A stretch of 64,000 bases of DNA from an uncultured Acidobacteriaceae bacterium (lineage in GTDB: Bacteria > Acidobacteriota > Terriglobia > Terriglobales > Acidobacteriaceae): NCBI GenBank assembly GCA_963841095.1, contig CAWJBE010000002.1, positions 2,278-66,277 of the forward strand, in the 5' to 3' direction. Position 1 is the first letter of the stretch. Each line of letters opens with the position of its first letter. Positions 6,144 to 26,235 of this stretch are shown here, piece after piece. The notes under the pieces were generated by a model. That model was given only the letters and a program-made list of their open reading frames with translations. It had not been told where the DNA came from and did no database searches. The position numbers and the translations under genes are program-made.

Positions 6144-6617
6144 CGGACGCTTCTCCAGGAAGGAGGGCGCCGCGCACACGAATCCGCAGATGGGCTCTGC
6201 AGTTGGTTCCAGCGCATCGCAAACTAGCGCGGCTGCGCTCCGGCGCACTCCCTCGGAGATAGGATCTCCCGCCTGGCTGGCGGAAAACTGTTCAAAAGGG
6301 ATCACTTCCCGGGGAAGGATTGGATTTTCAAGATTGAGGCCTTCTTGAGTGCCAGGGCCCGTCGACACTCTCGAGGCTCAGGCTTATTCACAAAGCGCTG
6401 CGTCGTCCGGAGACCAGGTTGACAACCAGGACGATTAACGCGACCACCAACAGAATGTGGATCAGGCTACCGGCTATGTGAAGGCTGAAGCCCAGAAGCC
6501 ACAGGACCAGGAGAACAACGAAGATTGTCCAAAGCATATACACACCTTCTTTGCATCGCGGAGCGCCTGAGGCCGGAAACCCGGCTCAGACGCACCCAAC
6601 GCATTCACAATGAGCGG

Positions 6618-7633: not shown

Positions 7634-8293
7634 ATGGCGGTTGCGCGTGCAATGCCAGCGTTTGACACGGCTGCTTTCCTAGCGAGCGCCGGCTTGGGGC
7701 GAAGAATCGTCCGATTGACGCCCAAGCAGACCTTCTTTACGCAGGGAGAACCGGCCGATTCAGTCTTCTATCTTCAAAAGGGCCGCGCAAAGATTACGGT
7801 CGTGTCGCAGGCCGGCAAAGAAGCCACAATCACGCTCCTCTCCGCGGGTGAATTTGTGGGAGAAGGGTCGCTGGCAGCGATTCCTGGGCTGCGACTTTCG
7901 ACGGCCACGGCTCTTACCGGCTGCATCGCGCTCAAGATTACGCGGGAAGAGATGATACGCATAATGCACGAGGAGCCTGATTTCTCTGACTTGTTTATGA
8001 AGTTTCTGCTGGCTCGCAGCATGCGCATCCAGGCCGATCTTGTCGATCAGCTCTTCAACTCCAGCGAAAAACGGCTTGCGCGGATTCTCCTTCTGATGGC
8101 GGAGTTTGGCCAGCCAGGCAGCCCGGAAACGGCGATTCCCAAAATATCCCAGGAGACCCTGGCGGAGATGGTCGGCACTACCCGCTCCCGGGTAAGCTTC
8201 TTTATGAACCGCTTTCGTAAACTCGGCTTTATTGAATACGACGGCCGCATCCGCGTTCATAAGTCGCTGCTCAATGTGGTTCTTCACGATTGA
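7634..8293 (+). CDS. Crp/Fnr-family transcriptional regulator
   Basis: cNMP-binding-like domain (GEFVGE) and C-terminal HTH SQETLAEMVGTTRSRVSFFM. Confidence 0.93.
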   Translation: MAVARAMPAFDTAAFLASAGLGRRIVRLTPKQTFFTQGEPADSVFYLQKGRAKITVVSQAGKEATITLLSAGEFVGEGSLAAIPGLRLSTATALTGCIALKITREEMIRIMHEEPDFSDLFMKFLLARSMRIQADLVDQLFNSSEKRLARILLLMAEFGQPGSPETAIPKISQETLAEMVGTTRSRVSFFMNRFRKLGFIEYDGRIRVHKSLLNVVLHD

Positions 8294-8798: not shown

Positions 8799-10079
8799 TT
8801 GCTTATGATGCGTATATTACGTCTACCTTTTGCGCGCGCGGCGTCTGTACTTGCGGTCATGCTGGCGTCCAGCGGAGCTCTATTTGCTTATTCCGTTCTT
8901 ACGCATGAAGAAATTGTCGACTTGGCATGGACGTCCGAGATTCGCCCGCTCCTGTTGCAACGATTTCCAAATCTGACCGACGATCAGATCAAGGACGCCC
9001 ACGCTTACGCCTATGGCGGCTCGGTGATTCAGGACTTGGGCTACTATCCCTTCGGCAGCAAAGACTTCAGCGACCTGGTTCATTACGTTCGCAGTGGGGA
9101 TTTTGTTATCGAGTTGCTTCGCCAAAGCCAGAATGCCAACGAGTATGCCTTCGCCTTGGGAGCGTTATCGCACTATACGGCGGACATTGACGGTCACCCC
9201 GCAGTCAATCAAGCTGTCGCGCTCCGCTATCCAAAGCTGCGAGCCAAATATGGCAATTCGGTTCGCTATGCGCAGGACACCACGGCTCATCTGAAGACCG
9301 AGTTCGGATTCGACACGCTGCAGGTTGCGAAGAATCGATATGCGTCGGACCAGTACCACGATTTCATCGGCTTCAAAGTCGCGCAACCGCTGCTGGAGCG
9401 GACCTTTCCAATCGTATACGGACTGCAACTAAAAGACGTACTCGCGCACGAGGACCTGGCGATCGGATCGTATCGCTTTTCAGTCAGCCGGCTGATTCCG
9501 CAAATGACCAAGGTCGCGCTCCAGACGCACAAGAAGGACCTGATGCGAGAGACGCCCGACTTCGCAAAGCGGAAGTTTCTGTATCGGCTATCGCGCTCCG
9601 ACTACGAGCGGGAGTGGGGAAAGACCTATACGAAGCCGGACTTCGGCACGCGGGTACTATCCGCACTGTTGTGGTTCATTCCCAAGGTCGGCCCTTTCAA
9701 AGGTTTGGGGTTCAATAACCCAACACCGAAGACGGAAGACTTATATATCAAGAGCATCAATGCTACCGTCGACCAGTACCGCGTCTATCTTGAGGAGGTG
9801 CGTGCAGGCACATTGGCCCTGCCCAACTGCGACCTTGATGACGGCAAAGCAACCAAAGCAGCGGAATACACGCTCGCGGACGCGACTTACGCCGGCTTGC
9901 TGGCCAAATTGAAGGCGCAGAAGTTCGATGGCACTTCGCCGCAACTGCGCGATAACATTCTCGATTTCTATTCCGACCTCTCCCTGCCAATCGAGACCAG
10001 GAAAGACCCGGCTCGCTGGCAAAGTGTCTTGACGGATCTTGACGAATTGAAAGCGACGGCCTCTTTGCCGGCTAAGTGA
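8799..10079 (+). CDS. Zinc-dependent phospholipase C family protein
   Basis: Signal peptide then YSVLTHEEIVD; QDLGYYP, HY, SHYTADIDGH and HLKTEFGFD motifs. Confidence 0.8.
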   Translation: MLMMRILRLPFARAASVLAVMLASSGALFAYSVLTHEEIVDLAWTSEIRPLLLQRFPNLTDDQIKDAHAYAYGGSVIQDLGYYPFGSKDFSDLVHYVRSGDFVIELLRQSQNANEYAFALGALSHYTADIDGHPAVNQAVALRYPKLRAKYGNSVRYAQDTTAHLKTEFGFDTLQVAKNRYASDQYHDFIGFKVAQPLLERTFPIVYGLQLKDVLAHEDLAIGSYRFSVSRLIPQMTKVALQTHKKDLMRETPDFAKRKFLYRLSRSDYEREWGKTYTKPDFGTRVLSALLWFIPKVGPFKGLGFNNPTPKTEDLYIKSINATVDQYRVYLEEVRAGTLALPNCDLDDGKATKAAEYTLADATYAGLLAKLKAQKFDGTSPQLRDNILDFYSDLSLPIETRKDPARWQSVLTDLDELKATASLPAK

Positions 10080-10224
10080 GGATGGCGTCTCCCTTGAACC
10101 CCGGACAGCTTCAGCGCGAACACCGCGCCTGATCCAAACTGCTCAGACTCCCATGAGTTAAGCCGTTACGCTCAAAAAAGGTTGAACCAGGCAAATGACT
10201 ATCCAACCACGGTGAGGAAAATTC

Positions 10225-10608
10225 ATGAATAGCATCAAGTTTCTTGCTTTAGCGGCGGTTGCCGCATTCGCCATAGCAGCTGGCGCTCCCAAGGCAGCGG
10301 CACAGGTCACAATCGAAATCGGAGCCGCCCCCGACTGCCCCTATGGTTACTATGACTACGTCCCTTATAACTGCGTTCCTGACGGCTACTATGGTCCGGA
10401 ATGGTTTAACGCTGGAGTCTTCATCGGCACCGGCCCGTGGTTTCATGGGCACGACGACTTTCAGGGCAAGGTCGACAACACCTTCGACCCACAGAACGGA
10501 TATAGCGGCCCGTTGCCCAAAGCCGGCGATAAGCCCGCAGCGCAGCGGAGATCTCCTGAGCAATTCAAGGGAAATGAAGTGCGCGATGGGCGCGGCAACA
10601 AAAAGTGA
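10225..10608 (+). CDS. Secreted Tyr/Gly/Pro-rich hypothetical protein (paralogue of 3841-4401)
   Basis: GAGG RBS, signal peptide, CPYGYYDYVPYNCVPDGYYGP core. Confidence 0.8.
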   Translation: MNSIKFLALAAVAAFAIAAGAPKAAAQVTIEIGAAPDCPYGYYDYVPYNCVPDGYYGPEWFNAGVFIGTGPWFHGHDDFQGKVDNTFDPQNGYSGPLPKAGDKPAAQRRSPEQFKGNEVRDGRGNKK

Positions 10609-10837
10609 AGAAAACCAGGGCAACATAGCGCAAAACAAACCAATCCCAACCCGTGCAAACGGACCAGCGACCGAGTTGTCCAGATGAGCATTAGAGGCGC
10701 CGATTCTCAATCTTACGTCGATCTATTGACGCCTCGTTGAACAGGCAAGAAACCGTATTCTCTTTGATCAAGGCGCCGAAGATGCATTTCGGAGCTTTTA
10801 TCAAAGCCTCACAAGTTGAACCCACGGAGGTGGACCG

Positions 10838-11047
10838 GTGAATCGAGATCGAGTGAAGGGTACTATCGACGAAATGGTGGGAAGCGCCAAGCGAAAGGCG
10901 GGCCAGTTGACTGGCGATACGCCGCTTCAGGTCAAGGGAATCGCACAGCAGGTTAAGGGAAAACTTGAAAATACCCTCGGTAAGACCAAAGATGCAGTTC
11001 GCGGAGCCAACCAGGGAACTAAGTCACGAAATGGCGCGCGCGCCTAA
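10838..11047 (+). CDS. csbD: CsbD-family general stress protein
   Basis: NRDRVKG...GSAKRKAGQLTGD..LQVKG.AQQVKGK pattern; GGAGG RBS with GTG start. Confidence 0.88.
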   Translation: MNRDRVKGTIDEMVGSAKRKAGQLTGDTPLQVKGIAQQVKGKLENTLGKTKDAVRGANQGTKSRNGARA

Positions 11048-11251
11048 CTTGAGTTACTCTGAGTCGAAGGTCGAGTCAAGTTAGCGCGCCTAATTCGTAT
11101 CGCTGCGTCAAGATGAATTCGGCATGAACGGGAGTCGATGGCTTGTGCAGAGATTAGGCGGCTTTGCTTTCTTGACCGACCGGGTGCTCGAGCGATCACA
11201 AACCTGGGCGGACATGCCGCGATAAGCAGTGGGTGCATACTCTAATCTTCT

Positions 11252-12517
11252 TTGCCGACATCCGCCCCATCTCGATGGATTCGATCGCTCCTTAAGGCGC
11301 TCGGGCCCGGAATCATCACCGGTGCTGCGGATGATGATCCATCGGGTATCGCAACATACTCCATTGCCGGCGCACAGCTTGGAACCACGCTACTCTGGAC
11401 GGCATTGCTGACGTGGCCGCTGATGGCCGCGGTGCAAATGATGTGCGCCCGCATTGGCAAGGTGACGGGAAAGGGTTTGGCTGGGAATCTCAAGCAACGA
11501 TTCCCCAGGTGGCTATTGCTCGCGGTCATCACAGCCCTTTTAATCGCCAACACAATCAATATTGCCGCGGACCTGGCAGGCATGGCGGACGCAGCATCCA
11601 TGCTATCGGGAATCAATTCCGTCTGGTATGTCGTGGCCTTCGCGATTCTCATCTCGTGGGCGACCATTCGGCTCCAGTATCTGCAGATCGCAAACGTGCT
11701 CAAGTGGCTGGTGCTTGTGCTCTTCGCATACCCCATTACTGCGTTTGTAGTGGGAGTCGACTGGACCCAGGTGTTGCGCGAGACCCTGATACCTTCAATG
11801 CCTCATACCAGAAATGGATGGGCAACGCTGGTGGCGATACTTGGCACCACCATCAGTCCGTATCTTTTTTTCTGGCAAGCGAGTGAAGAAGTTGAAGAGG
11901 AGAAGTCAGCAGGCCAAAGTTCGCTAGCTCAGCGCAAAGGAGCCACGCAAAAAGAGCTTGGGCTGAGAAATATCGACGTCGGTGTCGGCGCGTTTTTCTC
12001 GAATATGGTCATGTTCTTTATCATCCTGACCACTGCCATCACCCTCAACCGGCACGGCATTACGAATATCGAAACATCCCGGCAAGCGGCCGAAGCACTG
12101 CGCCCGTTCGCCGGAAAATTCGCAACAACTGTGTTTACACTCGGTATTGTCGGAGTTGGCTTTCTTGCGATCCCAACTCTTGCGGGATCGACCTCATACG
12201 CGTTCGCTGAGACTCTAGGGTGGCGCCAGGGCTTGAACAAGAAATTAACGGGCGCGCGTTGGTTTTATGCACTGATTCTTGTCTCTACTGCAGCGGGTGT
12301 TGCGCTAAACCTTCTTGGCATTAACCCTGTAAAGGCGCTCTACTGGACAGCAGTCATCAATGGATTGCTGGCGCCCTTTCTTCTTATTGCAATCCTCATC
12401 GTCGCTGCGGACAAGAAACTGATGCAGGGCCAGCCGAGCTCCCGCCTCGGATGGATTGTGGTGGCGTTTACGACGATAGCCATGTTCGCAGCCGGCATTG
12501 CGATGTTTGCCGTGTAA
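11252..12517 (+). CDS. NRAMP-family divalent metal cation transporter
   Basis: GPGIITGAADDDPSGI (DP motif), GTTISPYLFFWQ, multiple TM helices; exact start uncertain. Confidence 0.9.
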   Translation: MPTSAPSRWIRSLLKALGPGIITGAADDDPSGIATYSIAGAQLGTTLLWTALLTWPLMAAVQMMCARIGKVTGKGLAGNLKQRFPRWLLLAVITALLIANTINIAADLAGMADAASMLSGINSVWYVVAFAILISWATIRLQYLQIANVLKWLVLVLFAYPITAFVVGVDWTQVLRETLIPSMPHTRNGWATLVAILGTTISPYLFFWQASEEVEEEKSAGQSSLAQRKGATQKELGLRNIDVGVGAFFSNMVMFFIILTTAITLNRHGITNIETSRQAAEALRPFAGKFATTVFTLGIVGVGFLAIPTLAGSTSYAFAETLGWRQGLNKKLTGARWFYALILVSTAAGVALNLLGINPVKALYWTAVINGLLAPFLLIAILIVAADKKLMQGQPSSRLGWIVVAFTTIAMFAAGIAMFAV

Positions 12518-12527
12518 GCTCGCAGGG

Positions 12528-13241
12528 TTAGGCGACCTCGCGACTTCTGCCTGCCCGATTTGCCGCTTTACGCAGCGCAAATTTGTCAGCAGCATCGATC
12601 TTGCGCAGGCCGCTCACTTTCCAGATTCCAAAGCAAGCGCCCGCCACCAGCAGGCCCGCGAACATACAAACCAGGGGAGTCGACCACTTCTGGAGCGTCC
12701 CTGCCCAGAGGTGAATAGCGTGGCGCCCATAAACTACGCCAAGCCACGCAATGAGGGAGTAACGGAGGGTTCGAGCCGCACCGTAGACCGCGAGGAAGCG
12801 CAGTCGCGAAACGCCAAGCGCGCCAGCGGCGAGCGCGAACGGCAAAAGTGGAATCGGCGGGGGAAGCACAGCCGGAAGAAACACGGCGAGGACGCGGTGA
12901 TGCTCTACCCATCCGGTAACTCGCCCAAGAAGACGTGCCGGCACATAGCGGCGCAATGCCTCTTCGCCCCCTCTGCGCCCAAGGTCCCATGTGGCATATC
13001 CGCCAAGAAGGCTACCCGCGATCGCGAATGCGGCAAGCAACCATGGATTTCCGCCGTATGCCACCAACCAGAGAAGCAGCAGGTCAGTGCTACCAGGCAG
13101 AGGCAGCGGAATAGGAGAGGAGTCGACGACGGCAACGAAGAAAAGCCCCAGAACTCCCAGGTGCGTGAGCCAACGCGGCATCAGCGAGTGATGTGTAGGG
13201 GACAAAAGGAGCAGTGCCTGTTGCCGAAGAGGAATACTCAT
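12528..13241 (-). CDS. YqaA/VTT (DedA-like) membrane protein
   Basis: Hydrophobic; DSSPIPLP, GSLLGG, LPPPIP...GAL, RTLRY motifs; start may be 13181. Confidence 0.8.
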   Translation of the reverse strand: MSIPLRQQALLLLSPTHHSLMPRWLTHLGVLGLFFVAVVDSSPIPLPLPGSTDLLLLWLVAYGGNPWLLAAFAIAGSLLGGYATWDLGRRGGEEALRRYVPARLLGRVTGWVEHHRVLAVFLPAVLPPPIPLLPFALAAGALGVSRLRFLAVYGAARTLRYSLIAWLGVVYGRHAIHLWAGTLQKWSTPLVCMFAGLLVAGACFGIWKVSGLRKIDAADKFALRKAANRAGRSREVA

Positions 13242-13374
13242 AGAAATGTGGACCAGGTGTTCCGTCTCTGTGCCATTAGATGCGTGCGCTCATCGGATCT
13301 TCCTGAAAGCTCGCACTGTATAGGTAGACGATGGTCTCCTCATTATTTCCCGTTTAAATTGCATTTTCTCAAAA

Positions 13375-13995
13375 TCAGTTCAACGAGGCCTGACTTTGAA
13401 TCTGGCGGGCCTGGACGGTAACTCTGGCAATGTGGAAGCCCGCAAAACTCGTAACGTGTACTGAATCCAACTCGGCCGCATTGAACCGCCCCCTCACATC
13501 AGGAAGAGTCCGAGCCAATGCCCGATGGATCGCGGTTTCTGCGGTTCTACCGAGAGCTTGCGACGAGTATGAATCCGCTAGCCACATAAAGTGCCAGCCA
13601 ACTCCGCGAATTGCGGCATCCAGATCCATTGCTGCGGTGTCCTTTGCCTCCGCCCATCCCTTGGAAAACGGCTCGTGTCGCAGATCGAATCGTTCCGGGA
13701 GGACGCATCCATTGCGCAGGAATACCGTGTGCAGCTTCAAGGTTGCCGGCTTGACGGTGGTTTGAGCAACCGGTTCCGTCCAGAGTCGGATGTAATCGGA
13801 AGTGCGGGGCGAGGGGACGCTCGGAAAAGAATGTACCAGGGCGACATCATCGGCAGAGACTGGAATTACATTCCTCCTAGCGGCGGACTTGATCCGGGCG
13901 GCGCCGGGCTGGCTCGCCGGTCCTGTCCTACCCAGCCTCATGGCTCGCCGCGCTGCGAAATGCTTTTCAACATCGATTTTCTTGATAAGGCTCAT
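13375..13995 (-). CDS. Hypothetical protein
   Basis: GGAG RBS; basic N-terminus plus a globular C-terminal region (GWHFMWL, FNAAE); no family recognised. Confidence 0.55.
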   Translation of the reverse strand: MSLIKKIDVEKHFAARRAMRLGRTGPASQPGAARIKSAARRNVIPVSADDVALVHSFPSVPSPRTSDYIRLWTEPVAQTTVKPATLKLHTVFLRNGCVLPERFDLRHEPFSKGWAEAKDTAAMDLDAAIRGVGWHFMWLADSYSSQALGRTAETAIHRALARTLPDVRGRFNAAELDSVHVTSFAGFHIARVTVQARQIQSQASLN

Positions 13996-14064
13996 GGTGC
14001 TCCAGTTGTTCTATTAAGATCCTCTGCGGCCTCCAGCGAGTCCGCAGAGGATCGAAGGTCGTGC

Positions 14065-15651
14065 TTAGCGCAGGCTTCCAGTGGTTGGGTTGAGCGGGCT
14101 TCCGATTGCTTCGCCCGATACGACCAATTCCACTCTCCGGTTTTGCTGGCCGTCCGGCGGAGTCATCGTTCGAGGCTACCGGCGAACTGTTGCCGAAGCC
14201 CGTTGCGCTGACTGAGTTCGCTACTACGCCTTCTTGCACGAGGTATTCGCGAACCGAGCCCGCGCGGTTTTCCGAGAGCTTCTGATTCATCTCATCGCCA
14301 CCCACATTGTCGGTATATCCGCCGACTGCAATGTTGAGTCCTGGGTATGCAGATCAGAATTCCGGCAACCTTTGCCAGCTTCTCCCGCGCGCCGGCCTTC
14401 AACGAGTATTGCCCGGTGTCGAAAAGAACGTCGGACATGCTGACAATCAGTCCCCGGGCGCTGTCGCGCGTCTCGAGAATCTCATTGAGTCGCACTTCCA
14501 ATTGCGCACGCATCGCCGCCTTTTCGCTGTCCGCCTGCTGCTGTCCCTGCTGTGCTTGCGAGGCGATCAAGCGAGCCTGGTCGGCATCGGCTTGAGCCGC
14601 GTTGATCGCGGCGGCCGATGAGGCCTGGTTGTTAAGCATGTCCGTCTGCGCCTTGGCTGTGGCGGCCTGGGCATTTGCAGCATCCGCTTGGGCGTTTGCC
14701 GCATCGGCTTGGGCCTGATCTTTCTCGGCGAGTAGCGTTATCGGCCTGCGCCTGCGACTGTGCCTGCGCGTCCGCGGAAGCCTGGCGTTCGCTCGCGATG
14801 CGATCTTCCTCAATTCTCTTGACGGCGATCTCACGCGCATCTTCCGCAGTCTGTACGGTCTCGCGCGATTTCGCGATCAGCTGCTTCTTATCCGAATGAC
14901 CTTCCGTGGCGTACGCGTCGGCATTGTTCATCAACTGGACAGCATGTTCATAGCTTTCGCCGGCGTACTTCTCCGCGCCCTCAGACTTCGCAATGCGAAC
15001 CGCATTGCGCGCTTCAAGAAACTCCAATGGCAGCTTGGCATCTAGAACCACCGGGTCGAATTTGTATCCGGTCGGAATATAACCGCCCCGCTCCATCAGT
15101 TCATATTTTGCGTTCATTGCTTCAGGTGTGCCCTTGGTGTCCGCTCGAACAACATTCTCGAGCACAACAACATTGCTTGGCTGACGAACAGCAAAATAGG
15201 GCTCAGCGGTGACGATCAGTGCGAATGCCTGGAGATCGGTGGTGGCAGTCAGCTTGCTCCGATCGTCGCCGCCGATCAACACTTCTCCAAGATTCACTGC
15301 GTGGCCGTCAGGCGAGATCGCCCACAGCACATAGGTCAGATATTCTGTGCCAAAGGTCGTGGGGCTTTGCAAATTCCCAAAGTCCGCTTCGACTTCCATG
15401 GTGCCGCGCTTGCTGCGCACTTTGGCTTTTCCGTCGGCTGATGGCAGCAGAGCAGTTCCAGACATATCCACGTCAGAGGCCCCGCTGCGATGCTGGTAGT
15501 CAACTGCTTCAACTGTGCGACTGGTCTCGTTCACAACATAAGCGGGCATTGTGCCGGAAGGCACGAGAGCGATCGACTCTTGCGGGCCGGCTTGAGCAAA
15601 CGCGCTCACGCTGAGGAAACTTCCGATCACGAACAATAGTGTGTGTTTCAC
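14065..15651 (-). CDS. OmpA-family protein with coiled-coil linker, interrupted by three +1 frameshifts (~14740, ~14351, ~14150)
   Basis: Fragments join to SDVLFDTG...LAKVAGILIAYPGLNIAVGGYTDNVG...NQKLSENRA...GRQQNRRVELVV; GTG start after GGAG. Confidence 0.85.
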
Positions 15652-15739
15652 AATATCTCCTGCAGTCAAAGGGCTGCTGTCTTGCATTGTTGTCCTGGGT
15701 TGGCGGGCGAAGCTATGCAGACTTCGATTTTGTGGCTTG

Positions 15740-15931
15740 TCATCGCCCGACGCGGAATTGATTCAGGTGTTGAAACACCCCGTATAGATTCGCGATCCAC
15801 AAGACTAAGACGATGACAACCAGGCCGTTCAGGATCGATTTGATTTGCCCCTGCATCGGGATGAACCTGTTCACAAGCCACAACAGAAGTCCTGCTGCAA
15901 CAATCGTGATGATGACTGTGGTAAGTGGCAT
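15740..15931 (-). CDS. Small two-helix membrane protein (Thivi_2564-like)
   Basis: 63 aa: TM helix, NRFIPMQGQIKSILN, TM helix; GGAG RBS. Confidence 0.75.
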   Translation of the reverse strand: MPLTTVIITIVAAGLLLWLVNRFIPMQGQIKSILNGLVVIVLVLWIANLYGVFQHLNQFRVGR

Positions 15932-16229
15932 TTCGTGTTCTCCAATCTTTTTCCCGGATGCGATGCCGTCTTAGAACATCGCCGAGAAGTTGCGAGCGTT
16001 CGGCTCAGTCAGTGGGGGAGCCATCAGAAAGGGGAGAACGATTACTCCGCTTCATTCCTATTCTTCCAAGGGGATTCAAAAATAGCTGAGCTACAATGCT
16101 CACTCGGATGAATTAGGAGTCGATATTTGAAGAGATGCGATCCGAGCCCCTACAACGGCAAGTCGAGCGGCTCTAATGCAGGCACCGATTAATGGAATGA
16201 AGCTGGAGGCAAATTTCGCTGAGAACATG

Positions 16230-16468
16230 CGATGATGCGGATGCGCCGCCCGGGCTTGGGTTGCGCCAACCGGCGTCTGCCGCGATCAGCGCTTCAGCCT
16301 CTTTCGGCGCAGCCGCTCCAGGCACCATTCGGAATGGCAACGCCGATCCCTGGAACCCTGACTGCACCGCGCTTCACCATTGCACTGAGTACGGGGGACG
16401 ATCATTTTGCGTGCCAGATCGCCGGTGATACCGATGACAACCAGATCGACCGATTGCGGCTCGGCCAT
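16230..16468 (-). pseudogene. zwf: Truncated, frameshifted glucose-6-phosphate dehydrogenase remnant
   Basis: MAEPQSVDLVVIGITGDLARKMI then (shifted) AMVKRG..VP.IGVA matches the Zwf N-terminal GxTGDLA region; begins 12 nt after gnd; left boundary approximate. Confidence 0.7.
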
Positions 16469-16479
16469 CAGGCGCCTTC

Positions 16480-17496
<1,017 letters not shown>

Positions 17497-17686
17497 TTGA
17501 ACCTCCCGATACGATATTTGATGCAAGCGCGGGAACAATTGCGCCCTATGACAAGATACTGCCGTGCACTCCGCACCAGATGCAGGCAGAGCACAGGCAG
17601 TCTCAGGGAATGCGTAGCATTGTTGTGAGGCAGTACTTCTGCAGAGGCCGCCGAGGCCGGTACAGAAATCATAACTGGTGGGCCGA

Positions 17687-17845
17687 TTACGGTTTCAGGG
17701 CTTTCCCCTGGCAGTCCGAGTGCTGGCATTGGCATACGAGTTCGGTCATGCCTTTTGCGTCGCGGCAGACGTCGCTACAGAACTCATTCCCCTCCGCGGG
17801 AACGCAGTTGCAGGCGGCATGGGCACATTTTGACGTGGTGTTCAT
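17687..17845 (-). CDS. Bacterial metallothionein-like protein, 52 aa (missed by the ORF track)
   Basis: [52 protein letters not shown]; 8 Cys and 2 His; AAAGGAG RBS. Confidence 0.85.
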
Positions 17846-17950
17846 AGAATCTCCTTTGATCAGTTGTGTGGTTTGTTAGAGCCTCATGAGGCGATTACGA
17901 CGGATGACGGTCAGATCAGGGACAGTGAGGCCGATAATCACCGTATCCCC

Positions 17951-19156
17951 TCACTGCGTCGTGGGTGATGACTTTTGAGTTGCCGCGGCACTGACCTGTA
18001 CTGGCCGCTCCGCGTGGGTTGTGGATGAGCTGACTGCCTGCGCCGGTTTGTCTTCCGGGATCTCTGTCCCGGCCGGATAGATGAGAATCTGGATTGAGCC
18101 CCAATCTGCTTCGAGGCTCGCACCCGCCTGCTTGCCCATTCCGAGCGTTTTGAGCTGGCTGTCGTCAAAGCCAAAGTTCTCGACCAGATACTCACGGATA
18201 ATCATCGCCCTGGCCTGGGTGAGCACGAGATCCTTCTGGGTATCGCCATCCATGCCAGTTGAGACCACGACAACCGCAACTCCGAATTGAGTCTGTGCCA
18301 GGAAATCTCCGGCCGACTTGAGGGTCTTCTGGTCTTTCATTTTGGCCGAATCGCGTCCATCGAAAAGCTGCTTGGCTGCGTAGGTGAATGCCTTCTCAGG
18401 CGTAGCCTGCGGCAGCCCGCTGATGCTGTTTGCCGCCAAATCGGAGGAGTCTTCGTATCCCCGCTTCTTGAAATATCCACTCAAGAAGAAGTTGTGTTTC
18501 AATGCTTCCATATTCTCCTGGAAGTCCGTTACGCCGGTCTGCGCCTGCAGCATCGTGTCATGGAGCGTGGCCGTCGTCTTTTCCAGGTTGTTATAGAGTT
18601 GCTTGTCGTTTATGAGTGATCCCACGGTTCCTTGACCCGAATCGATCTTGGCACTCACCGAATTCAGGTGCGCCGTGGCCAGTGTTGCGTTTTGGATAGC
18701 CTGTTGACTGCTATCCAAAATTCCGCTCGTCTTCTTGAGCAAATCCGCCATCAGCAGCGGCGCCTCGCTTTGGATGGTTTCGCCATTGATCACTGCGGCT
18801 TGTCCTGCGGACCCGAACGAAATAGCAACAAACTGATTGCCCAAAACTCCCTCGGTTTCAATTGAAGCTACAGAGTCACGCTTGATGATCTCCTTTGTCG
18901 ATTTGTTGAGATCCATGACGACGATGATCTTATCGCCTGGTTTGTGAGGCAGCGTGATGCTATGCACAGTTCCGCTGTGAACCCCGCCCACTTGCACGTC
19001 GGCGCCCACACTCAGCCCCGCAACATTGTCGAATTGCGTCTTGAGTTGGTAGGTAGACCGAAACAAATACTCCTTGCTCCCGATCACGAAGACGCCGGCG
19101 GCTAGAACTGCCAGCGTCGCGACGATGAATGCTCCCAATCTTGCCAATCTCGACAT
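17951..19156 (-). CDS. mlaD: MlaD/MCE protein with C-terminal OmpA-like domain
   Basis: N-terminal TM, VAGLSVGADVQVGGVHSG MCE motif, TEGVLGNQFV; C-terminal LFD...ARAMIIREYLV...LGMGK. Confidence 0.85.
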   Translation of the reverse strand: MSRLARLGAFIVATLAVLAAGVFVIGSKEYLFRSTYQLKTQFDNVAGLSVGADVQVGGVHSGTVHSITLPHKPGDKIIVVMDLNKSTKEIIKRDSVASIETEGVLGNQFVAISFGSAGQAAVINGETIQSEAPLLMADLLKKTSGILDSSQQAIQNATLATAHLNSVSAKIDSGQGTVGSLINDKQLYNNLEKTTATLHDTMLQAQTGVTDFQENMEALKHNFFLSGYFKKRGYEDSSDLAANSISGLPQATPEKAFTYAAKQLFDGRDSAKMKDQKTLKSAGDFLAQTQFGVAVVVVSTGMDGDTQKDLVLTQARAMIIREYLVENFGFDDSQLKTLGMGKQAGASLEADWGSIQILIYPAGTEIPEDKPAQAVSSSTTHAERPVQVSAAATQKSSPTTQ

Positions 19157-19164
19157 GAGTTCTC

Positions 19165-19953
19165 CTAGAACTGCTTCAAAAACTCGTTCACAAACCCGAT
19201 GCCGCTTTCTTGCAGGTCTTCAAACGTGCCCTCGATCACTACGTCGCCCTCATTCAGGAGGGCGAGTCGCCCGGCAATCGTCTTGGCGCTATGCAGGTCG
19301 TGCGTCACTACGATGGATGCCATGCGGCGTTCCCGCTGGAGCTTGAGAATTAACTCGTCAATTTCGCCGGAACTGATCGGGTCGAGACCGGCTGTGGGCT
19401 CGTCGAGCAGCAGAATCTCCGGCTCCAGTGCCAAGGCGCGCGCAAGGCCAACGCGCTTTTGCATCCCACCCGAAATATCGGAAGGCATCTTTTCGAGATC
19501 GGCCTCCATTCCCACCTCGTCCAGCAATTGCCTCACACGGTCTGATCGCTCGGATCTGGAAATGTCTCTGCGATGGTGCTCGAGGGGAAACGCCACATTT
19601 CCGGCTACAGTGAGCGAATCGTAGAGCGCCGCTTGCTGAAACAGGAAACCCATTTTCTTTCGGATCGCTCCCATGCGGTCGAGAGCCAGGCCGGCGATAT
19701 CCTGGCCATGAATGCAGACCGATCCGGAGTCAGGTGTATCGAGTCCAATGATCAGTCTCAACAAGACGCTTTTCCCTGTGCCGCTGCGCCCGAGCACCGC
19801 CAGCGTTTCTCCCTGGTTCACGCGCAGGCTGATCCCGTTTAGAACTTTGTGGCCCGCGAAGGACTTATACACGTTCTCGACTGTAACGACGGGCACAAGG
19901 CCGTCTTGCCTGCGTCCCGCTTGCTTTGCCGCCATGTCATAAGCTGTGGCCAT
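19165..19953 (-). CDS. mlaF: MlaF-type ABC transporter ATPase
   Basis: GRSGTGKS Walker A, ISGGMQKR signature, LLDEPTAGLDP. Confidence 0.92.
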   Translation of the reverse strand: MATAYDMAAKQAGRRQDGLVPVVTVENVYKSFAGHKVLNGISLRVNQGETLAVLGRSGTGKSVLLRLIIGLDTPDSGSVCIHGQDIAGLALDRMGAIRKKMGFLFQQAALYDSLTVAGNVAFPLEHHRRDISRSERSDRVRQLLDEVGMEADLEKMPSDISGGMQKRVGLARALALEPEILLLDEPTAGLDPISSGEIDELILKLQRERRMASIVVTHDLHSAKTIAGRLALLNEGDVVIEGTFEDLQESGIGFVNEFLKQF

Positions 19954-19982
19954 ATTTGCGTTACGAGCGCTTCAAACAATCG

Positions 19983-20833
19983 TTAAGGAAAGAAAACGAG
20001 AATGAATTTCACGAGAACGACGTCGGCCAGGATAAGAAAAAGCGAGGCCAGCACGACCGAGTTGGTGGCCGCACGGCCCACACCCGCAGCCCCACCGCGC
20101 GTGCGCATTCCCTGGAAACACGCGATGAGCCCGATGATCAGCCCATACACGGCGGTTTTGAATGTCTGTGGTAGGAATGCACTGAAGGTGGCGCCATTAA
20201 AGCCGCTTGCAATGTACTGATGGAACGAGAGCGGCTCAACAAGAGCCTGCGCAAACCAGCCAGTCAGCATGGCGCATGCGTCGGTGGCAAGAGTTAGCAG
20301 CGGCAGCATCAGGATGCAGGCTAGTATGCGTGTCGCGGCCAGAAGCCTGTAGGGGTTGATCGCGGATGCCTCAATGGCGTCGATCTGCTCGGTTACTTTC
20401 ATCGATGCCAGCTCCGCGCCCATGCCGGCGCCCACGCGCCCGCTTACGACCAGGCCGGTAATGACCGGGCCCATGACTTGGACAACGGAGTACACGAGCG
20501 TCGCAGGAAACATCGATTTGGCGCCGAATCGCGTGAGACTGTAGCGGGCTTCCAGCGAAATGACAACGCCAATTGCGGCGCCTGCCATGGCGACCAGCGG
20601 CAGCGACTTCGACCCAACTTCGTCCAGCTGCCGAATCAGCTCACGCCATTCATATGGCGGCGTAGCCGCTGCCCGCAGGACTCGCCAGGAAAAGATTCCC
20701 AATTCCCGAACCACTCGAAAAAACCGTTGAAAAGCTCCATGGCAGAGTTCGCAATTGCGGACGTGGGTGCGCTCCGCCGTACCTGAAGTGGAGGGCTTAT
20801 GTCCGCAACAGATGTAAATCCGCGTTCGCTCAT
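19983..20833 (-). CDS. mlaE: MlaE-type ABC permease with one frameshift near 20706
   Basis: GPVITGLVVSGRVGAGMGAELASM, EQIDAIE, GVGRAAT; N-terminal part (..FFEWFG) lies in another frame and is restored by one extra G. Confidence 0.88.
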
Positions 20834-21666
20834 TGATTTGGGCCTGGGTCCGGTGCGCCGTGCCCGTTGTTCAGGTGCATGCGTGAAATCAAGGCATGGG
20901 GTCCGCTATAGAAAAATTCAAGAGCAATGTTGCCGCCCACATAACTCAACAGGCTGTAATTGCCCATGCGGAACGCGTCCTTTGCGCCGAAGCGGTCCGG
21001 ATACCACCCGTAAACCGCAATCATGGAGCCCGCATACGGCGCCGCAAGCGCGGGAAATGAGAAGACGCGATGGCCATCTTGCCCGCGGCGCGCTGTCAAA
21101 GTGGAGATCACGGCATGGCGCAACCGTGGAAATGTGCCACTGCATTCGCAGCGGTAGTACAAAGTATCTTCCCTAAAGGCTTCCGCAAGCCCGTAGCGCG
21201 TGGTTGTTCCAATCGTCGCAATGGCGAAGTCGGAACCGAACCTCTTACCGAAACCCTCGACGCCCTGACCCCACTCAGGCGGAGAATTGGTCCACTGGTT
21301 GATTCCAGCCGCGAACGCGGCGCCGATGAGTGGATACGGACCGAATGCGTCGAAAGCATAGTTGTTCACCTTCATTTTTTCGGTCGGCCGAACGTAGGTC
21401 AGGTCAAGCTTTCCAGGATTCGTGATTCCTGTAGTTGCCGACGGATCTTCAGAAGAGGCCAGCGCTTGCGATCGCGCCAGTCCTGGCATCGCGGCCATGG
21501 TCGCCGTGACCAACACCAGGAGTTTTGCCAAGTGAACCACCGTGTCTAGAGCCTTTTTGCCCGTTTGGACGACGCGTCCTCCCGCCAGACGGTTCTGGCA
21601 AGCCAACAGGACATGCGACTCCGAGATCCACTCCGATGACCTCATCGTCGCTCCTTTGATTGGCAT
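20830..21666 (-). CDS. Conserved hypothetical, probably exported/outer-membrane protein
   Basis: Stop overlaps the mlaE start; PPEWGQG.EGFGKRFG, DTLYYRC, WYP motifs; true start probably downstream of 21666. Confidence 0.65.
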   Translation of the reverse strand: MPIKGATMRSSEWISESHVLLACQNRLAGGRVVQTGKKALDTVVHLAKLLVLVTATMAAMPGLARSQALASSEDPSATTGITNPGKLDLTYVRPTEKMKVNNYAFDAFGPYPLIGAAFAAGINQWTNSPPEWGQGVEGFGKRFGSDFAIATIGTTTRYGLAEAFREDTLYYRCECSGTFPRLRHAVISTLTARRGQDGHRVFSFPALAAPYAGSMIAVYGWYPDRFGAKDAFRMGNYSLLSYVGGNIALEFFYSGPHALISRMHLNNGHGAPDPGPNQ

Positions 21667-21946
21667 CGCCCATGTCAGTCACAGCATGCGTCAAGATTGA
21701 ACTGCCACATCGTTGGCTACGCCCATAGAGATAGTTGCAGAGTGGAAGCCTCAAAGGATGGTCACATTTGCACGCAATCGCACGTCGTGTGCTTCCGCAC
21801 CGACCTCGCCGGTCAATCAAGGCGGAATCGACCCCCTCGGACCAAGTGGTCTTCGGGCCTGTGTCCAAAAGAGCACAGTTTTGCTCTGGATTTCAGAGGA
21901 TAATTGAAGAAGCCAGTTGTTTTTACTGTTCGCTGAGGAGCCTGCC

Positions 21947-22459
21947 ATGCCTGAAGTTCATGCTTTCCCTTCCATCCCGACAAAGATCCTGTTGCCCATC
22001 GACTTTAGCTCATCTTCTCAAGCGGCTTTGGAGATAGCTGCTGATCTTGCGAAGCACTTTCATGCGGAACTCTTTCTTCTGAATGTTCTCCCTATGTTTC
22101 CCGCCACGACGCTCCCTGACTTTGTTCCCGAAGGCGAATTCCTGCAGAAGGGCAGATCGCTCGCGGAGCGACATTTGGCCAAGTGCCATACAGCTCTTGC
22201 GGCCAGGGGGGTGAAGTCAACTTCCAGTGTCGAGGTTGGAAACGATATCGCCGGGAACATCATGGAAGTTGTGGAGCGAGAGCATATTGATATGGTGGTG
22301 ATCTCCACACACGGCATCTCCGGCTGGCATCCGCTGGTCTTCGGATCAATTGCCGAAAAGGTGACAAAACTCGTGCGATGCCCTCTGTTGCTTCTGCGTT
22401 CTGCCAAGCCCGGCGAAAATGCAAAGACCCAGTCTGAGCATTCTGGAAGATGGTGGTAG
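21947..22459 (+). CDS. Universal stress protein
   Basis: KILLPIDFS, DMVVISTHG...FGSIAEKV...CPLL; GAGGAG RBS. Confidence 0.92.
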   Translation: MPEVHAFPSIPTKILLPIDFSSSSQAALEIAADLAKHFHAELFLLNVLPMFPATTLPDFVPEGEFLQKGRSLAERHLAKCHTALAARGVKSTSSVEVGNDIAGNIMEVVEREHIDMVVISTHGISGWHPLVFGSIAEKVTKLVRCPLLLLRSAKPGENAKTQSEHSGRWW

Positions 22460-22816
22460 GGAAGACTTGTATCCCCTCCTCGTGGCGTTCAAACGTGCCG
22501 GAGTTCCAGCGCATTTCTCAGAGTGAGCAATATAGTACAGACAGCCTTTCTGGAACCGGGCGATGATGGACAGAGATTGATCGTAGTCGCGGTTGATAGT
22601 GGGCCAAACTTCCCCCATTTTTTTGCGCCTGCTTCACGAGTAGCCACCTCGAGATTGCCTTGCCGGCGCGAGCCGGCATGAAATGCCGTTCACTCGACCA
22701 ATTCGCTTGTGGGTTTTGATTCATTTGCCAATCACTGCAAACGCGGCACACCGCGGCGACGCGTGACTGGATACGAAAAAGCCAACCAGGCAAATAGTCC
22801 GCAACGAGGTAGCGTT

Positions 22817-23521
22817 TTGACAAGTAAAAGAGTCACTGGATTCGATTCTGCAACCTTTCTTGCAAACGCAGGGCTCGGCAGAACTATTATCGAGCTCAAG
22901 CCAAAGCAGACATTTTTTGGCCAGGGAGACAAAGCAGATTCTGTTTTCTTTTTACAGAAGGGCCGCGCAAGAGTCACTGTCGTCTCGCAGAGGGGCAAAG
23001 AAGCCACGATCACCCTTCTATCCGCCGGCGACTTTGTCGGAGAGGAATCTCTCGCGGCGATCATCGGACTGCGTTTGGCGACCGCGACCGCCTTGAATAC
23101 CTGCACAGCCCTCAAGATTAGCAGAAACGAAATGATCCGAGTGATGCATGACGAGCCTGCATTTGCCGACATATTCCTTAAGTTTCTGCTGACCCGCAGC
23201 ATGCGAACGCAGGCTGATCTTGTCGATCAACTGTTTAACTCAAGTGAAAAGCGTCTGGCGCGGATTCTCCTGTTAATGGCGGAATTTGGCAAGCCAGGTC
23301 AGCCAGAAACCTTCATCCCGCCGATTACTCAGGAAACTCTCGCCGATATGATCGGCACCACACGGTCTCGCGTCAGCTTCTTTATGAATCGTTTTCGCAA
23401 GCTCGGCTTTATCAGCTATAACGGCCGCATCCAGGTGCATAAGTCACTCTTGAACGTGGTCCTGCTCGATCAATTGCCTGAACGCAACGCGCAGAAACCC
23501 GCCATTCATCCGATCCCATAA
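22817..23521 (+). CDS. Crp/Fnr-family transcriptional regulator (second copy)
   Basis: Very similar to 7634-8293, HTH TQETLADMIGTTRSRVSFFM; TTG start after GAGGT. Confidence 0.92.
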   Translation: MTSKRVTGFDSATFLANAGLGRTIIELKPKQTFFGQGDKADSVFFLQKGRARVTVVSQRGKEATITLLSAGDFVGEESLAAIIGLRLATATALNTCTALKISRNEMIRVMHDEPAFADIFLKFLLTRSMRTQADLVDQLFNSSEKRLARILLLMAEFGKPGQPETFIPPITQETLADMIGTTRSRVSFFMNRFRKLGFISYNGRIQVHKSLLNVVLLDQLPERNAQKPAIHPIP

Positions 23522-23576
23522 GCAACTTCAATTCGAAGAGCAAAAGAACATCGCGGTCTGAATCCGAATCTCGTCA

Positions 23577-24407
23577 TCAGTGCGAGTGCCCTTCCGCACG
23601 TGCCGCGGTCTCTTCCTCGGTGACGACGAAAAAACTGCGCAAGTCAGCCTGTCCAAACGAAGTGGTCATCGCCACATCGGCGGCATCGCGTCCCGTCGCC
23701 ATCAGCACACGGCCAATCCGCGGTTCATTGTTGCGCGCATCGAAGGTCCACCAGCGCCCGCCTAAATAAGCCTCGAACCATGCGCTGAAGTCCATGGGAA
23801 GCCGCGCGGGCACGCCGATGTCACCCAGATACCCAGTCGCATAGCGCGCCGGAATATTCAGCGCGCGGCAGAAAGTGATCGCAAGATGTTGAAAGTCGCG
23901 GCATACGCCGACGCGTTCAGTAAACACATCCAGAGCAGTCTTTGTGGGCCGGGCCTGCTGGTAGTTGAACGCCACTTTAGTGTGCACCCAGTTGCAAATG
24001 GCTTGCACGCGGCCCCAGCCGGGTGCGATCTGTCCAAAGAGTTCCAGCGCAATGGTGGAAAAACGATCCACTTCGCAGTAGCGGCTGTTGAGCAGGAAGC
24101 TGAGCATTTCGTGTGGCAGATCGCCCACAGCCGATTCGCGCGCTGACCAATTGATCTCATCGAGCAATCCGGTGTCGCGAATGAGCGTGGAATTGAAAAG
24201 CCGCAGTTGCCCCTGAGGAGCGACAAACCGCGCACAGCGGTTCCCGAAGCCGTCAACGTAATGGGTGATATCCAGTCGCGGTTCGGTTTGCACCTCGTCC
24301 GGCTCCAGCAGGTCATGCGCGCGCGAAGGATGCACATTGAGAAGCGCCACCATTGCCACGGTGGCCGGAATATCGAATTGAATGTCGTATGCCAGCCGGA
24401 TCAACAT
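23577..24407 (-). CDS. Transglutaminase-family protein
   Basis: SRYC, GVCRDFQHL catalytic Cys, DFSAWFE, WWTFDAR, GRDAADV. Confidence 0.9.
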   Translation of the reverse strand: MLIRLAYDIQFDIPATVAMVALLNVHPSRAHDLLEPDEVQTEPRLDITHYVDGFGNRCARFVAPQGQLRLFNSTLIRDTGLLDEINWSARESAVGDLPHEMLSFLLNSRYCEVDRFSTIALELFGQIAPGWGRVQAICNWVHTKVAFNYQQARPTKTALDVFTERVGVCRDFQHLAITFCRALNIPARYATGYLGDIGVPARLPMDFSAWFEAYLGGRWWTFDARNNEPRIGRVLMATGRDAADVAMTTSFGQADLRSFFVVTEEETAARAEGHSH

Positions 24408-24474
24408 GTAGACACCCCAAAATTGAGAACCAGCGTTGACGGTCTTCGCGGTCGCTGAGTTTCAGAAATCGCAA

Positions 24475-26235
24475 TCACTTGAGCCTTTCAGCCATTAGGT
24501 GGTCCGCTACTCGAATCGCATTCGCGATGATGGTGAGAGAAGGATTGACCGCACTCGCTGAGACGAAACATGAAGCATCGACAACATAAAGATTGTCGAG
24601 TTCGTGCGCCTTGCACTGTGGATCAAGCACGCTGGTTTTCGGATCTGTTCCCATTCGGCAGGTGCCGTTTTGATGGCCGACGCCTTCAAGGGGAATGCGC
24701 TTCTTGAAGTATGCATGAAGCGGAACAGATGTGCTGGCGTGGCCGGCCTTCTTGAGGATGTCGACCCAGCGGTCTTTGAGGCGCTCGAAGGATTCGACAT
24801 TGTTTGACGTGTAAGAGAGCTGAATCCTCCCAGGTGGAGTATTTGTCACGGGCTCGGACTCGTTGCTGCGGCCAGTATCTCCCGAAGGATGGGCTCCGAC
24901 AAGACCTGGTTGATACGCTTCGACCGAGAGCGGAGTAGTGTTGTGCAGGGTGACGCGATTCTCAGGGTCGGGAAGATCTTCCGTGGTGAGCCACCAGGGA
25001 ACAGCGTGGTGTTTCATTCCTTCCAGGACAAGTTCCGGAGTGAATGGTGGAGCGTTGCCCTTCATCATCTCAAAGTGAAAGCTGCCAACCGGTTGCACCT
25101 GTCCTAGCGGAAACGGATAAGCTGGGTCGGTATCTTTGAGGTAGAAATCGTTGGTGCCCCAGGTCTTGGTGTAGCTGTCCTCGTTGCGGTCAGTGCTGAT
25201 TGCGAGCAGTGCGTCGGCTTGATGATACATGAAGTTGCGTCCCACCTGATCGGAGCGGTTGGCGAGACCTTTAGGATGCTTATCGTTGGCTGATGCCAGA
25301 AGAATCACTGCTGAGTTTATTGCCCCCGCGCACACAGCGAAAAGATCGGCCGCGTAGATGGCAGCGTTGCCGTCCTTTGATGCCGGCGGAGCATTCGCCA
25401 CGGCTGGTTCGAGAGCAGACCCATAAGGCACGCCCGCGCCGGAGTGGATCACCTCGACTGAAGTCACAGCGGTGCCGCTGCTGTTCGTGAGGAGGCGTAT
25501 CACGCGCGAATTCGTCATTAAGGTGACATTGGGTAAGTGCATGATCTGCCGAATGCAGTTGATATCCGCATCGGATTTTGCGTGGACCAGACATGGGTAG
25601 CCGTCGCACGTATCGCAGCGTACGCATTTTGAGGCAAGAGGATTTGCCTCGTCGCGCTTGAGACCGAGCGGAATCGGGAAGGTGTTAATCCCAAGCTTCC
25701 GAACATCGTCCTCGATGGACTGCATGCGCGGTTCGTTAGCGAAGGCGGGATAAGGATACTTCTTGGAATGGAACGGCTCGGTGGGATCGAAAGAAGAGCC
25801 AAATCCGCCTGGAACGGATGGGGCGGCGCCAAGATCGCCGTGAACGTGAAAAAGCTCTTCCGCGCGTGTGTAATAGGGTTCCAGATCGGAGTAGGAGATG
25901 GGCCACGCCGGAGAAATGCCGCCCTTATGGTGGATGACTCCGAAGTCTGCGGCACGCATGCGAAACAGGGCCGCGCCGTACACTTTTGTTTGTCCACCTA
26001 CATAATAGGACTGCTGCGGGTGCAGGTCTTTGCCGTCTTTATCCTGCCAGGTTTCCTTGGTGTGATATCGATTATCGAGGAAAACAGCGGAGGTGTCCCA
26101 GTTCAGCTTTTCCTGAGGCATGAACGGGCCCCGCTCCAGGATGAGAATGTTTTTGCCGGCTTGAGCCAGGTGGAAAGCCAGGGTTCCACCGCCCGCGCCG
26201 GTTCCGATAATGATTGCGTCGTATTGAGTCGCCAT
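24475..26235 (-). CDS. GMC-family oxidoreductase
   Basis: IIGTGAGGG FAD motif, GGQTKVYG, CVRCDTCDGYPC, HQNGTCRMG, NPSLT. Confidence 0.92.
   Translation of the reverse strand: MATQYDAIIIGTGAGGGTLAFHLAQAGKNILILERGPFMPQEKLNWDTSAVFLDNRYHTKETWQDKDGKDLHPQQSYYVGGQTKVYGAALFRMRAADFGVIHHKGGISPAWPISYSDLEPYYTRAEELFHVHGDLGAAPSVPGGFGSSFDPTEPFHSKKYPYPAFANEPRMQSIEDDVRKLGINTFPIPLGLKRDEANPLASKCVRCDTCDGYPCLVHAKSDADINCIRQIMHLPNVTLMTNSRVIRLLTNSSGTAVTSVEVIHSGAGVPYGSALEPAVANAPPASKDGNAAIYAADLFAVCAGAINSAVILLASANDKHPKGLANRSDQVGRNFMYHQADALLAISTDRNEDSYTKTWGTNDFYLKDTDPAYPFPLGQVQPVGSFHFEMMKGNAPPFTPELVLEGMKHHAVPWWLTTEDLPDPENRVTLHNTTPLSVEAYQPGLVGAHPSGDTGRSNESEPVTNTPPGRIQLSYTSNNVESFERLKDRWVDILKKAGHASTSVPLHAYFKKRIPLEGVGHQNGTCRMGTDPKTSVLDPQCKAHELDNLYVVDASCFVSASAVNPSLTIIANAIRVADHLMAERLK

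Follow-up and report, generated by a model that had tools for sequence, protein, structure and literature searches.

The closest described relatives of the protein considered here are metallothioneins of the BmtA type, represented by SmtA of Synechococcus elongatus PCC 7942 and other cyanobacterial BmtAs (PF02069; PDB 1JJD) and by PflQ2 MT of Pseudomonas fluorescens Q2-87 (PDB 6GV6, 6GV7, and 6GRV). The zinc-finger site A of SmtA, made up of C9, C14, C32, and C36, is the fully conserved core of the BmtAs; Y31 is also conserved and, together with A37, constitutes a conserved packing pair between the hairpin and the helix (PMC3323870). SmtA carries four zinc ions, whereas PflQ2 MT carries three (PMC10612145). 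In Pseudomonas, induction of the metallothionein is confined to stationary phase; the protein aids survival of long starvation, whereas metal resistance does not depend on it (PMC7387436). PflQ2 MT resembles the gene described below in having no adjoining metal sensor, and differs from its product in keeping equivalents of Cys11, His40, and Cys54 and in being retrieved when SmtA is the query of an ordinary sequence search.

The gene studied here lies in a 64,000-nucleotide stretch of DNA from an uncultured Acidobacteriaceae bacterium (hereafter the window), where an SmtA-like Cys8His2 coding sequence runs from 17687 to 17845 on the reverse strand. From its ATG start it specifies a product of 52 aa, with eight Cys (C7, C12, C14, C23, C27, C38, C40, and C45) and two His (H9 and H42) that together represent the predicted metal ligands. 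Cys accounts for 15% of the residues and F22 is the single aromatic, so that the general traits of a metallothionein, namely small size, a high Cys content, and few aromatics, are found in the protein. A preliminary description of this DNA had reported the ORF with its eight Cys and two His, and it is present exactly so, including quoted strings such as CQCQHSDC. That description had also called the gene missed by the ORF track, from which it is absent because ORFs under 60 aa fall below the default length floor of the track; it is, however, called in public annotation, and the annotations of the gene and its relatives mostly read "hypothetical protein."

A Shine-Dalgarno sequence, AGGAG, is found at 17851..17855 (reverse strand), 5 nt before the ATG, and the surrounding CGATCAAAGGAGAT is kept in the closest orthologues, as seen in a DNA alignment and a listing of upstream sequences. 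Homologues of about 80% identity share both the frame and the length of the ORF. When the DNA was aligned with eight orthologous loci, substitutions fell mostly at third codon positions and the leader and Shine-Dalgarno sequence were kept, and dN/dS between the window copy and 25 orthologues equal to it in length was 0.09–0.22 (Nei-Gojobori, where dS was unsaturated). The 52-codon ORF is a genuine gene under strong purifying selection, and a chance ORF is ruled out by these dN/dS values together with conservation across the phylum.

An HMM search with Pfam Metallothio_Pro (PF02069), which the preliminary description had proposed as a check, gave the window protein 13.9 bits (E 0.062), below the gathering cut-off of 33 bits. 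This sub-threshold match runs end to end (protein 3–46, profile 3–50 of 51 positions), and PF02069 was the only recurrent Pfam match among 84 aligned family members (29 of them at E ≤ 1, best 0.0047, none above the cut-off); a six-frame search of the source genome with the same profile gave 10.8–11.4 bits. NCBIfam yielded no match for the window protein. Its phmmer search against PDB sequences returned chance matches only, with no metallothionein or BmtA-type chain among them, and the family profile reached SmtA (1jjd) in PDB only at E 2.8. BLASTP of the window protein against SmtA (in a sequence identical to 1jjd) produced two short fragments with E 0.007–0.011 in a single comparison, unconvincing alone. 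When the family profile was aligned by hhalign with an SmtA-family alignment of 12 sequences, the match extended end to end over 47 columns with a probability of 95.4%, an E of 1.9e-8, and a score of 42.9. Column shuffling served as the control for an artefact of Cys composition: 200 shuffles gave a mean score of 10.8 (sd 2.5, maximum 19.6), and the reversed alignment scored 14.4. Judged by this profile-profile comparison, the family is a remote homologue of SmtA/BmtA. The earlier proposal of an acidobacterial metallothionein thus holds for the acidobacterial origin of the gene and, at the profile level, for its remote SmtA/BmtA homology, but the Metallothio_Pro threshold is missed and the ligand set is partly different, so that the protein is better regarded as a divergent relative than as a canonical BmtA.

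The hhalign alignment shows where the two proteins agree and where they part. C7, C12, C23, and C27 occupy the places of SmtA C9, C14, C32, and C36, such that all four Cys equivalents of zinc-finger site A are present in the window protein, and these four are also invariant in the family alignment, which had been pre-filtered for the motif. F22 corresponds to the conserved aromatic Y31, and C14, C40, H42, and C45 correspond to the further cluster ligands C16, C47, H49, and C52. The likeness to SmtA and the cyanobacterial BmtAs extends to a length of about 55 aa, the K-C-A with which the Cys pattern opens, the aromatic-C-S-x-x-C helix motif, and the C-x-H-x-x-C end. In contrast to SmtA, the window protein has His (H9) in place of Cys11 and an additional Cys, C38, which has no SmtA equivalent and lies two residues before the Cys47 equivalent. 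The SmtA ligands H40 and C54 have no counterpart, standing opposite K31 and G47, and the full Cys9His2 set of the four-metal cluster is therefore not matched. The conserved SmtA residue A37 is replaced by R28, at a position that is variable in the family, and between C14 and C23 the hairpin has seven residues fewer than that of SmtA. The SmtA/BmtA motif given in the preliminary description errs in one detail, its C-x-C-x-H-x-x-C end; since this end reads C-x-H-x-x-C in SmtA and in the Pseudomonas protein alike, the longer form is a feature of the acidobacterial family.

The family alignment comprises 84 members chosen by length and by a Cys-pattern regular expression, so that the invariance of C7, C12, C14, C23, C27, C38, C40, H42, and C45 within it is partly circular; all the same, 105 short matches passed the expression. 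Its consensus reads KCAHPACxC-x4-G-x-KYCSxYCxDA-x3-TE-x2-CxCGHxxC. Across a larger set of 266 members the spacing between C14 and C23 is 8 in 247, that between C27 and C38 is 10 in 246, and a Tyr or Phe, matching SmtA Y31, directly precedes C23 in 260. Of these 266 sequences, 223 have His9. Among the 43 that do not have it, 27 have His at position 26, vs. 15 of the 223 with His9, and the two residues are strongly anticorrelated (15/208/27/16; Fisher p 1e-15, a statistic that ignores shared ancestry). The appearance of His26 where His9 is missing fits a required His ligand, and the pattern is suggestive of a metal ligand that may have been relocated. The cluster representatives P0004, P0011, and P0014 are each short of a conserved Cys (the changes being C38R, C7F, and a missing C40 region), which may reflect errors in sequencing or natural variation of the ligands.

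The AlphaFold2 model derived from the family alignment (pLDDT 78.3) contains a helix at residues 25–30. Foldseek comparison of this model with PDB found nothing at E ≤ 0.001; Pseudomonas metallothionein (6gv6) ranked second with E 5.3 and TM 0.40, a non-significant match for a model built without metal, and the FCS zinc finger 2w0t ranked third with a likewise non-significant E of 7.5. Metal-dependent folds are poorly modelled when the metal is absent. The FCS/TRASH treble-clef fingers, such as the FCS finger of L3MBTL2 (PDB 2W0T), share with the window protein an N-terminal C-x4-C ... [FY]-C-S-x-x-C signature whose third Cys is followed by a short helix. These likenesses raise the alternative that the protein is a structural mini zinc finger with two zinc ions, engaged in binding protein or nucleic acid and storing no metal, for example as a stress-responsive regulator or as a partner of the pentose-phosphate enzymes of adjoining genes; its Cys and His would then do no more than maintain the fold. 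Its Cys spacing is very rigid and its helix is defined, unlike in flexible metallothioneins, and eight Cys with one or two His could form two independent sites without a cluster. Rigidity does not discriminate between the two readings, however, because BmtAs are themselves rigid and contain a zinc finger (PMC3323870, PMC10612145). FCS/TRASH fingers bind one zinc, whereas the window protein has five or six more conserved ligands downstream, and its ligands outside site A align with the cluster ligands of SmtA. With nine to ten ligands, the stretch of 39 residues also has more than two isolated sites need, and neither zf-FCS, YHS, and TRASH nor any other Pfam zinc-finger family was matched at E ≤ 1 among the 84 members. 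Taken as a whole, the evidence makes a two-zinc finger unlikely.

Eight Cys in 52 aa might instead suggest an iron-sulfur or rubredoxin-like electron carrier, and the family profile gave a sub-threshold match to a CDGSH iron-sulfur protein (E 0.89). Neither CxxCxxCxxxCP nor the CxxC...CxxC pattern of rubredoxins is present, however, His42 is invariant (in the pre-filtered alignment), and the order of the ligands is that of SmtA. That the ORF encodes such a carrier, or is a chance ORF of no function, is hardly credible. The reading to which we give most weight, and which is reasonably likely, is that the window protein is a divergent Zn/Cd-thiolate protein of the BmtA type.

The gene belongs to a sizeable family. 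An exhaustive phmmer search of 1.84 billion cluster representatives recovered at least 236 family clusters at 50% identity (E ≤ 1e-3), nearly all of 46–70 aa, and a profile search of 90%-identity clusters recovered 424 at E ≤ 1e-5. The preliminary description had made its case depend on conservation of the ORF, and the ORF is conserved in Acidobacteriota: with even sampling across the phylum, the family was detected in 31 of 201 genomes (∼15%) and 20 of 134 genera, often in several copies, and it is carried by 22 of 41 close relatives of the source genome. Canonical PF02069 proteins above the cut-off were found in none of the 201 sampled genomes, although the Synechococcus control was recovered. 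When genomes representing each species were scanned for KCAHPACN, 149 loci were confirmed, almost all in Acidobacteriota, with Terracidiphilus, Acidobacteriaceae, and Bryobacterales among the taxa. The nearest loci belong to Terracidiphilus sp. and Acidobacteriaceae MAGs, peat Terracidiphilus MAGs being at 79–83% identity. The related loci discussed below were gathered with a sub-alignment containing KCAHPACN and are biased towards members that have this motif; the full 84-sequence family alignment contains no conserved stretch of 7–10 columns. Judged from sequence comparison, the best explanation of the family is a large, mainly acidobacterial lineage distantly related to the BmtA/SmtA metallothioneins.

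Two further copies, 42–44% identical to the window copy, are found in tandem in the source genome on another contig (contig C7, ∼211656–211805 and 212130–212282; L003 1495–1650 and 1966–2124), flanked by a large glycosidase-like ORF on one side and dnaE on the other. At position 9 the two carry Asn in place of His, and one of them has His at position 26. Among the 120 best family clusters, 9 bear the JGI/IMG name "metallothionein," including proteins 60–63% identical to the window protein, and on account of this naming the idea of a metallothionein is already present in one automated pipeline. In the literature searched, no paper describes the family and no full text contains the KCAHPAC motif, and a search for metallothionein in acidobacterial taxa found no relevant paper.

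Within the window, the upstream neighbor is an MlaD-OmpA gene (17951..19156, reverse strand; Pfam), the last gene of an MlaE/ABC ATPase/MlaD operon whose other members lie at 19165–19953 and 19983–20714 on the same strand (Pfam). Its stop at 17951 leaves a gap of 105 nt to the 52-aa gene. The order of mla genes followed by the small ORF is common to L001, L018–L021, and L061, the closest relatives only. About 190 nt downstream, with a stem-loop between, lies a short gene resembling 6-phosphogluconate dehydrogenase (6PGD) at 16480..17538 (reverse strand; Pfam NAD_binding_2 and 6PGD), the likely start of which is the ATG at 17496. A 6PGD-like gene also comes next after the small ORF in L019, L021, L028, and L033.

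Several sequence features are found around the gene on the same strand. The hairpin CAGTGAGG-N18-CCTCACTG (17923..17956, reverse strand) overlaps the MlaD-OmpA stop codon and has no U-tract; it may represent a 3′ end structure of the mla operon. Folding of the whole upstream intergenic stretch was not stronger than that of shuffles (z 0.17). The 12-bp palindrome GCCTCATGAGGC (17881..17892, reverse strand), 36 nt upstream of the ATG, is partly kept (ATGAGG) in the closest orthologues. The downstream stem-loop (17635..17669, reverse strand), about 18 nt after the stop codon and also without a U-tract, is in a region with z -1.94 and may act as a 3′ end or as a stabilizer separating the small gene from the 6PGD-like one. 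A scan for consensus sigma-70 promoters and terminators around the 52-aa gene detected nothing relevant, and an Rfam search of window positions 9000–25000 gave no match at E ≤ 0.1, so that no riboswitch is indicated there.

The preliminary description had noted that no SmtB-like repressor is adjacent, which is borne out: no ArsR/SmtB gene is found on the contig of the window (C2) or on the contig of the paralogues (C7), the 13 HTH_5 (PF01022) matches of the genome all lying elsewhere. Its association of the gene with an NRAMP transporter did not hold up. The NRAMP gene (11252–12517) lies 5.2 kb away on the opposite strand, and no homologue was detected in the flanks of 81 related loci, which cover ∼4 kb and thus less than the distance in the window; the linkage was rejected on this count. 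The region is flanked by genes for a universal stress protein (Usp) and for two regulators of the Crp/FNR type (7634–8293, 21917–22459, and 22709–23521, all on the forward strand). Elsewhere in the window, a B12-binding radical SAM protein with a C-terminal DUF4070 domain is encoded at 4554–6368 (reverse strand). Five sizeable ORFs in the vicinity of the 52-aa gene have no Pfam match at E ≤ 0.001, namely 12498–13421 (forward strand) and 13375–13995, 14292–14840, 14632–15687, and 20830–21666 (all reverse strand); some of these overlap each other and hence not all are genes.

Clustering of the neighbors at 80 related loci revealed no universal partner, and among the recurrent neighbors there were no metal-homeostasis genes and no ArsR/SmtB; nor did any of 81 loci show linkage to a metal-related gene, which counts against a metallothionein. 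Those that do recur encode glucose-6-phosphate dehydrogenase (G6PD), 6PGD-like proteins, transketolase, and RpiB, as well as Usp, Crp-type regulators, a Zn-dependent alcohol dehydrogenase, RsbR/STAS proteins with HATPase_c_2 kinases, DUF892, and DUF4136. Crp homologues are near the small gene in 6 of 81 related loci and Usp in 4 of 81. At 17 of the 80 loci, mainly those of closer orthologues, the small gene immediately precedes pentose-phosphate genes of the same orientation. At least four arrangements are represented: tkt-rpiB-gnd-zwf follows the small gene in L028, L042, and L048, rpiB comes first in L036, L040, and L043, zwf comes first in L024 and L044, and gnd-zwf follows in L019 and L021. 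The gaps, measured from longest-ORF starts, are often only 30–100 nt. In Acidobacteriaceae relatives the unit of small gene and pentose-phosphate genes is often divergent from a Usp gene, and in Bryobacterales DUF892 and DUF4136 genes precede the family gene and RsbR/STAS and HATPase_c_2 genes follow it. This context of pentose-phosphate and stress genes in place of metal homeostasis, with no adjoining smtB, is a further difference from SmtA. The persistence of a place immediately before tkt, rpiB, gnd, or zwf across several gene orders, and the lack of linkage to metal-homeostasis genes, speak on the side of the two-zinc finger considered above.

A motif of the ECF-sigma type, [AG]GAAAC-N15-18-CGTC, is found upstream of the family gene at 14–15 of 78 loci vs. 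0.3 expected (L056, L058, L059, L064–L067, L070, L072, L076, L079, L084, L085, and L091). It is located 25–65 nt upstream of the gene in two lineages other than that of the window, and none of its ten other occurrences in the same loci is at a gene start. The motif is absent upstream of the window copy. The preliminary description had placed the gene under the control of a general-stress island, for which the relatives offer circumstantial support in their Usp and stressosome-like genes, pentose-phosphate operons, and ECF-type motif; at the window copy itself no promoter or operator was found that would support it.

The same context could be read as that of a thiol/zinc redox buffer or switch, in which oxidants would oxidize the eight thiolates and release zinc, NADPH from the pentose-phosphate pathway would pay for re-reduction, and storage would be secondary. 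It is consistent with this that genes for G6PD, 6PGD-like proteins, transketolase, and RpiB are linked to the small gene repeatedly and in more than one order, that Usp, DUF892, and RsbR/STAS are among the neighbors, and that the ECF-type motif is so far in excess of expectation. This support is purely contextual, however, and the synteny is partly inherited within one bacterial family; the window copy has no ECF-like motif, and the ∼190 nt with hairpins stand between it and the 6PGD-like gene. The Pseudomonas metallothionein, moreover, is not required for the response to oxidative or nitrosative stress (PMC7387436). A redox function of this kind is thus very unlikely to be the main one.

Under the preferred reading of a divergent BmtA-type protein, the gene product would be a small cytosolic metal-thiolate protein. 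C7, C12, C23, and C27, with F22 and the short helix at 25–30, would form the treble-clef zinc finger of site A and nucleate the SmtA fold, and H9, C14, C38, C40, H42, and C45 would provide further tetrahedral Zn(II)/Cd(II) sites that share bridging thiolates from site A. The outcome would be a compact cluster, most likely with three metals. By analogy, a load of three is probably the right prediction, because two SmtA ligands are lost and because PflQ2 MT holds three zinc ions compared with four for SmtA (PMC10612145).

The protein may serve in zinc buffering or storage and in the capture of cadmium during stress or stationary phase and not in dedicated metal resistance. Zinc buffering under such conditions appears the more likely role than metal resistance, since no metal sensor or efflux gene is nearby and the neighbors in relatives are pentose-phosphate, Usp, and stressosome-like genes. 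PflQ2 MT offers the best functional analogy, and a buffering role fits the Pseudomonas metallothionein in its stationary-phase induction, its part in starvation survival, and its dispensability for resistance (PMC7387436). A bolder proposal would be that the "KCAH" proteins are the principal, unrecognized metallothionein lineage of Acidobacteriota, serving as a stress-induced Zn-thiolate redox and zinc buffer that is coupled to the NADPH-producing pentose-phosphate pathway and is not a means of detoxification. It is prompted by the position of the gene at the head of tkt-rpiB-gnd-zwf operons and by the ECF-type promoter motif beside stressosome-like genes in other lineages, and we give it little credence.

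Acidobacteriota are among the most abundant bacteria of soil, and to our knowledge their handling of zinc and cadmium is essentially undescribed. The present analysis contributes a quantified homology control, the prevalence of the family in the phylum set against the absence of canonical BmtA, the His9/His26 pattern, the pentose-phosphate and stress context, and the ECF-like promoter motif in sister lineages. The family is captured by neither Pfam nor NCBIfam, and if metal is bound as predicted it would provide a model for annotation pipelines that could be applied to hundreds of "hypothetical proteins." It would also widen the sequence space of zinc-finger-type metallothioneins and supply a natural variant, with Cys replaced by His and a ligand relocated, that would help to explain how the affinity of the cluster is tuned. 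That the gene recurrently heads pentose-phosphate operons provides a concrete, testable lead, and the family, given the predicted metal binding, would be a test case for the idea, derived from the work on Pseudomonas, that bacterial metallothioneins act in survival of starvation and stress rather than in metal resistance.
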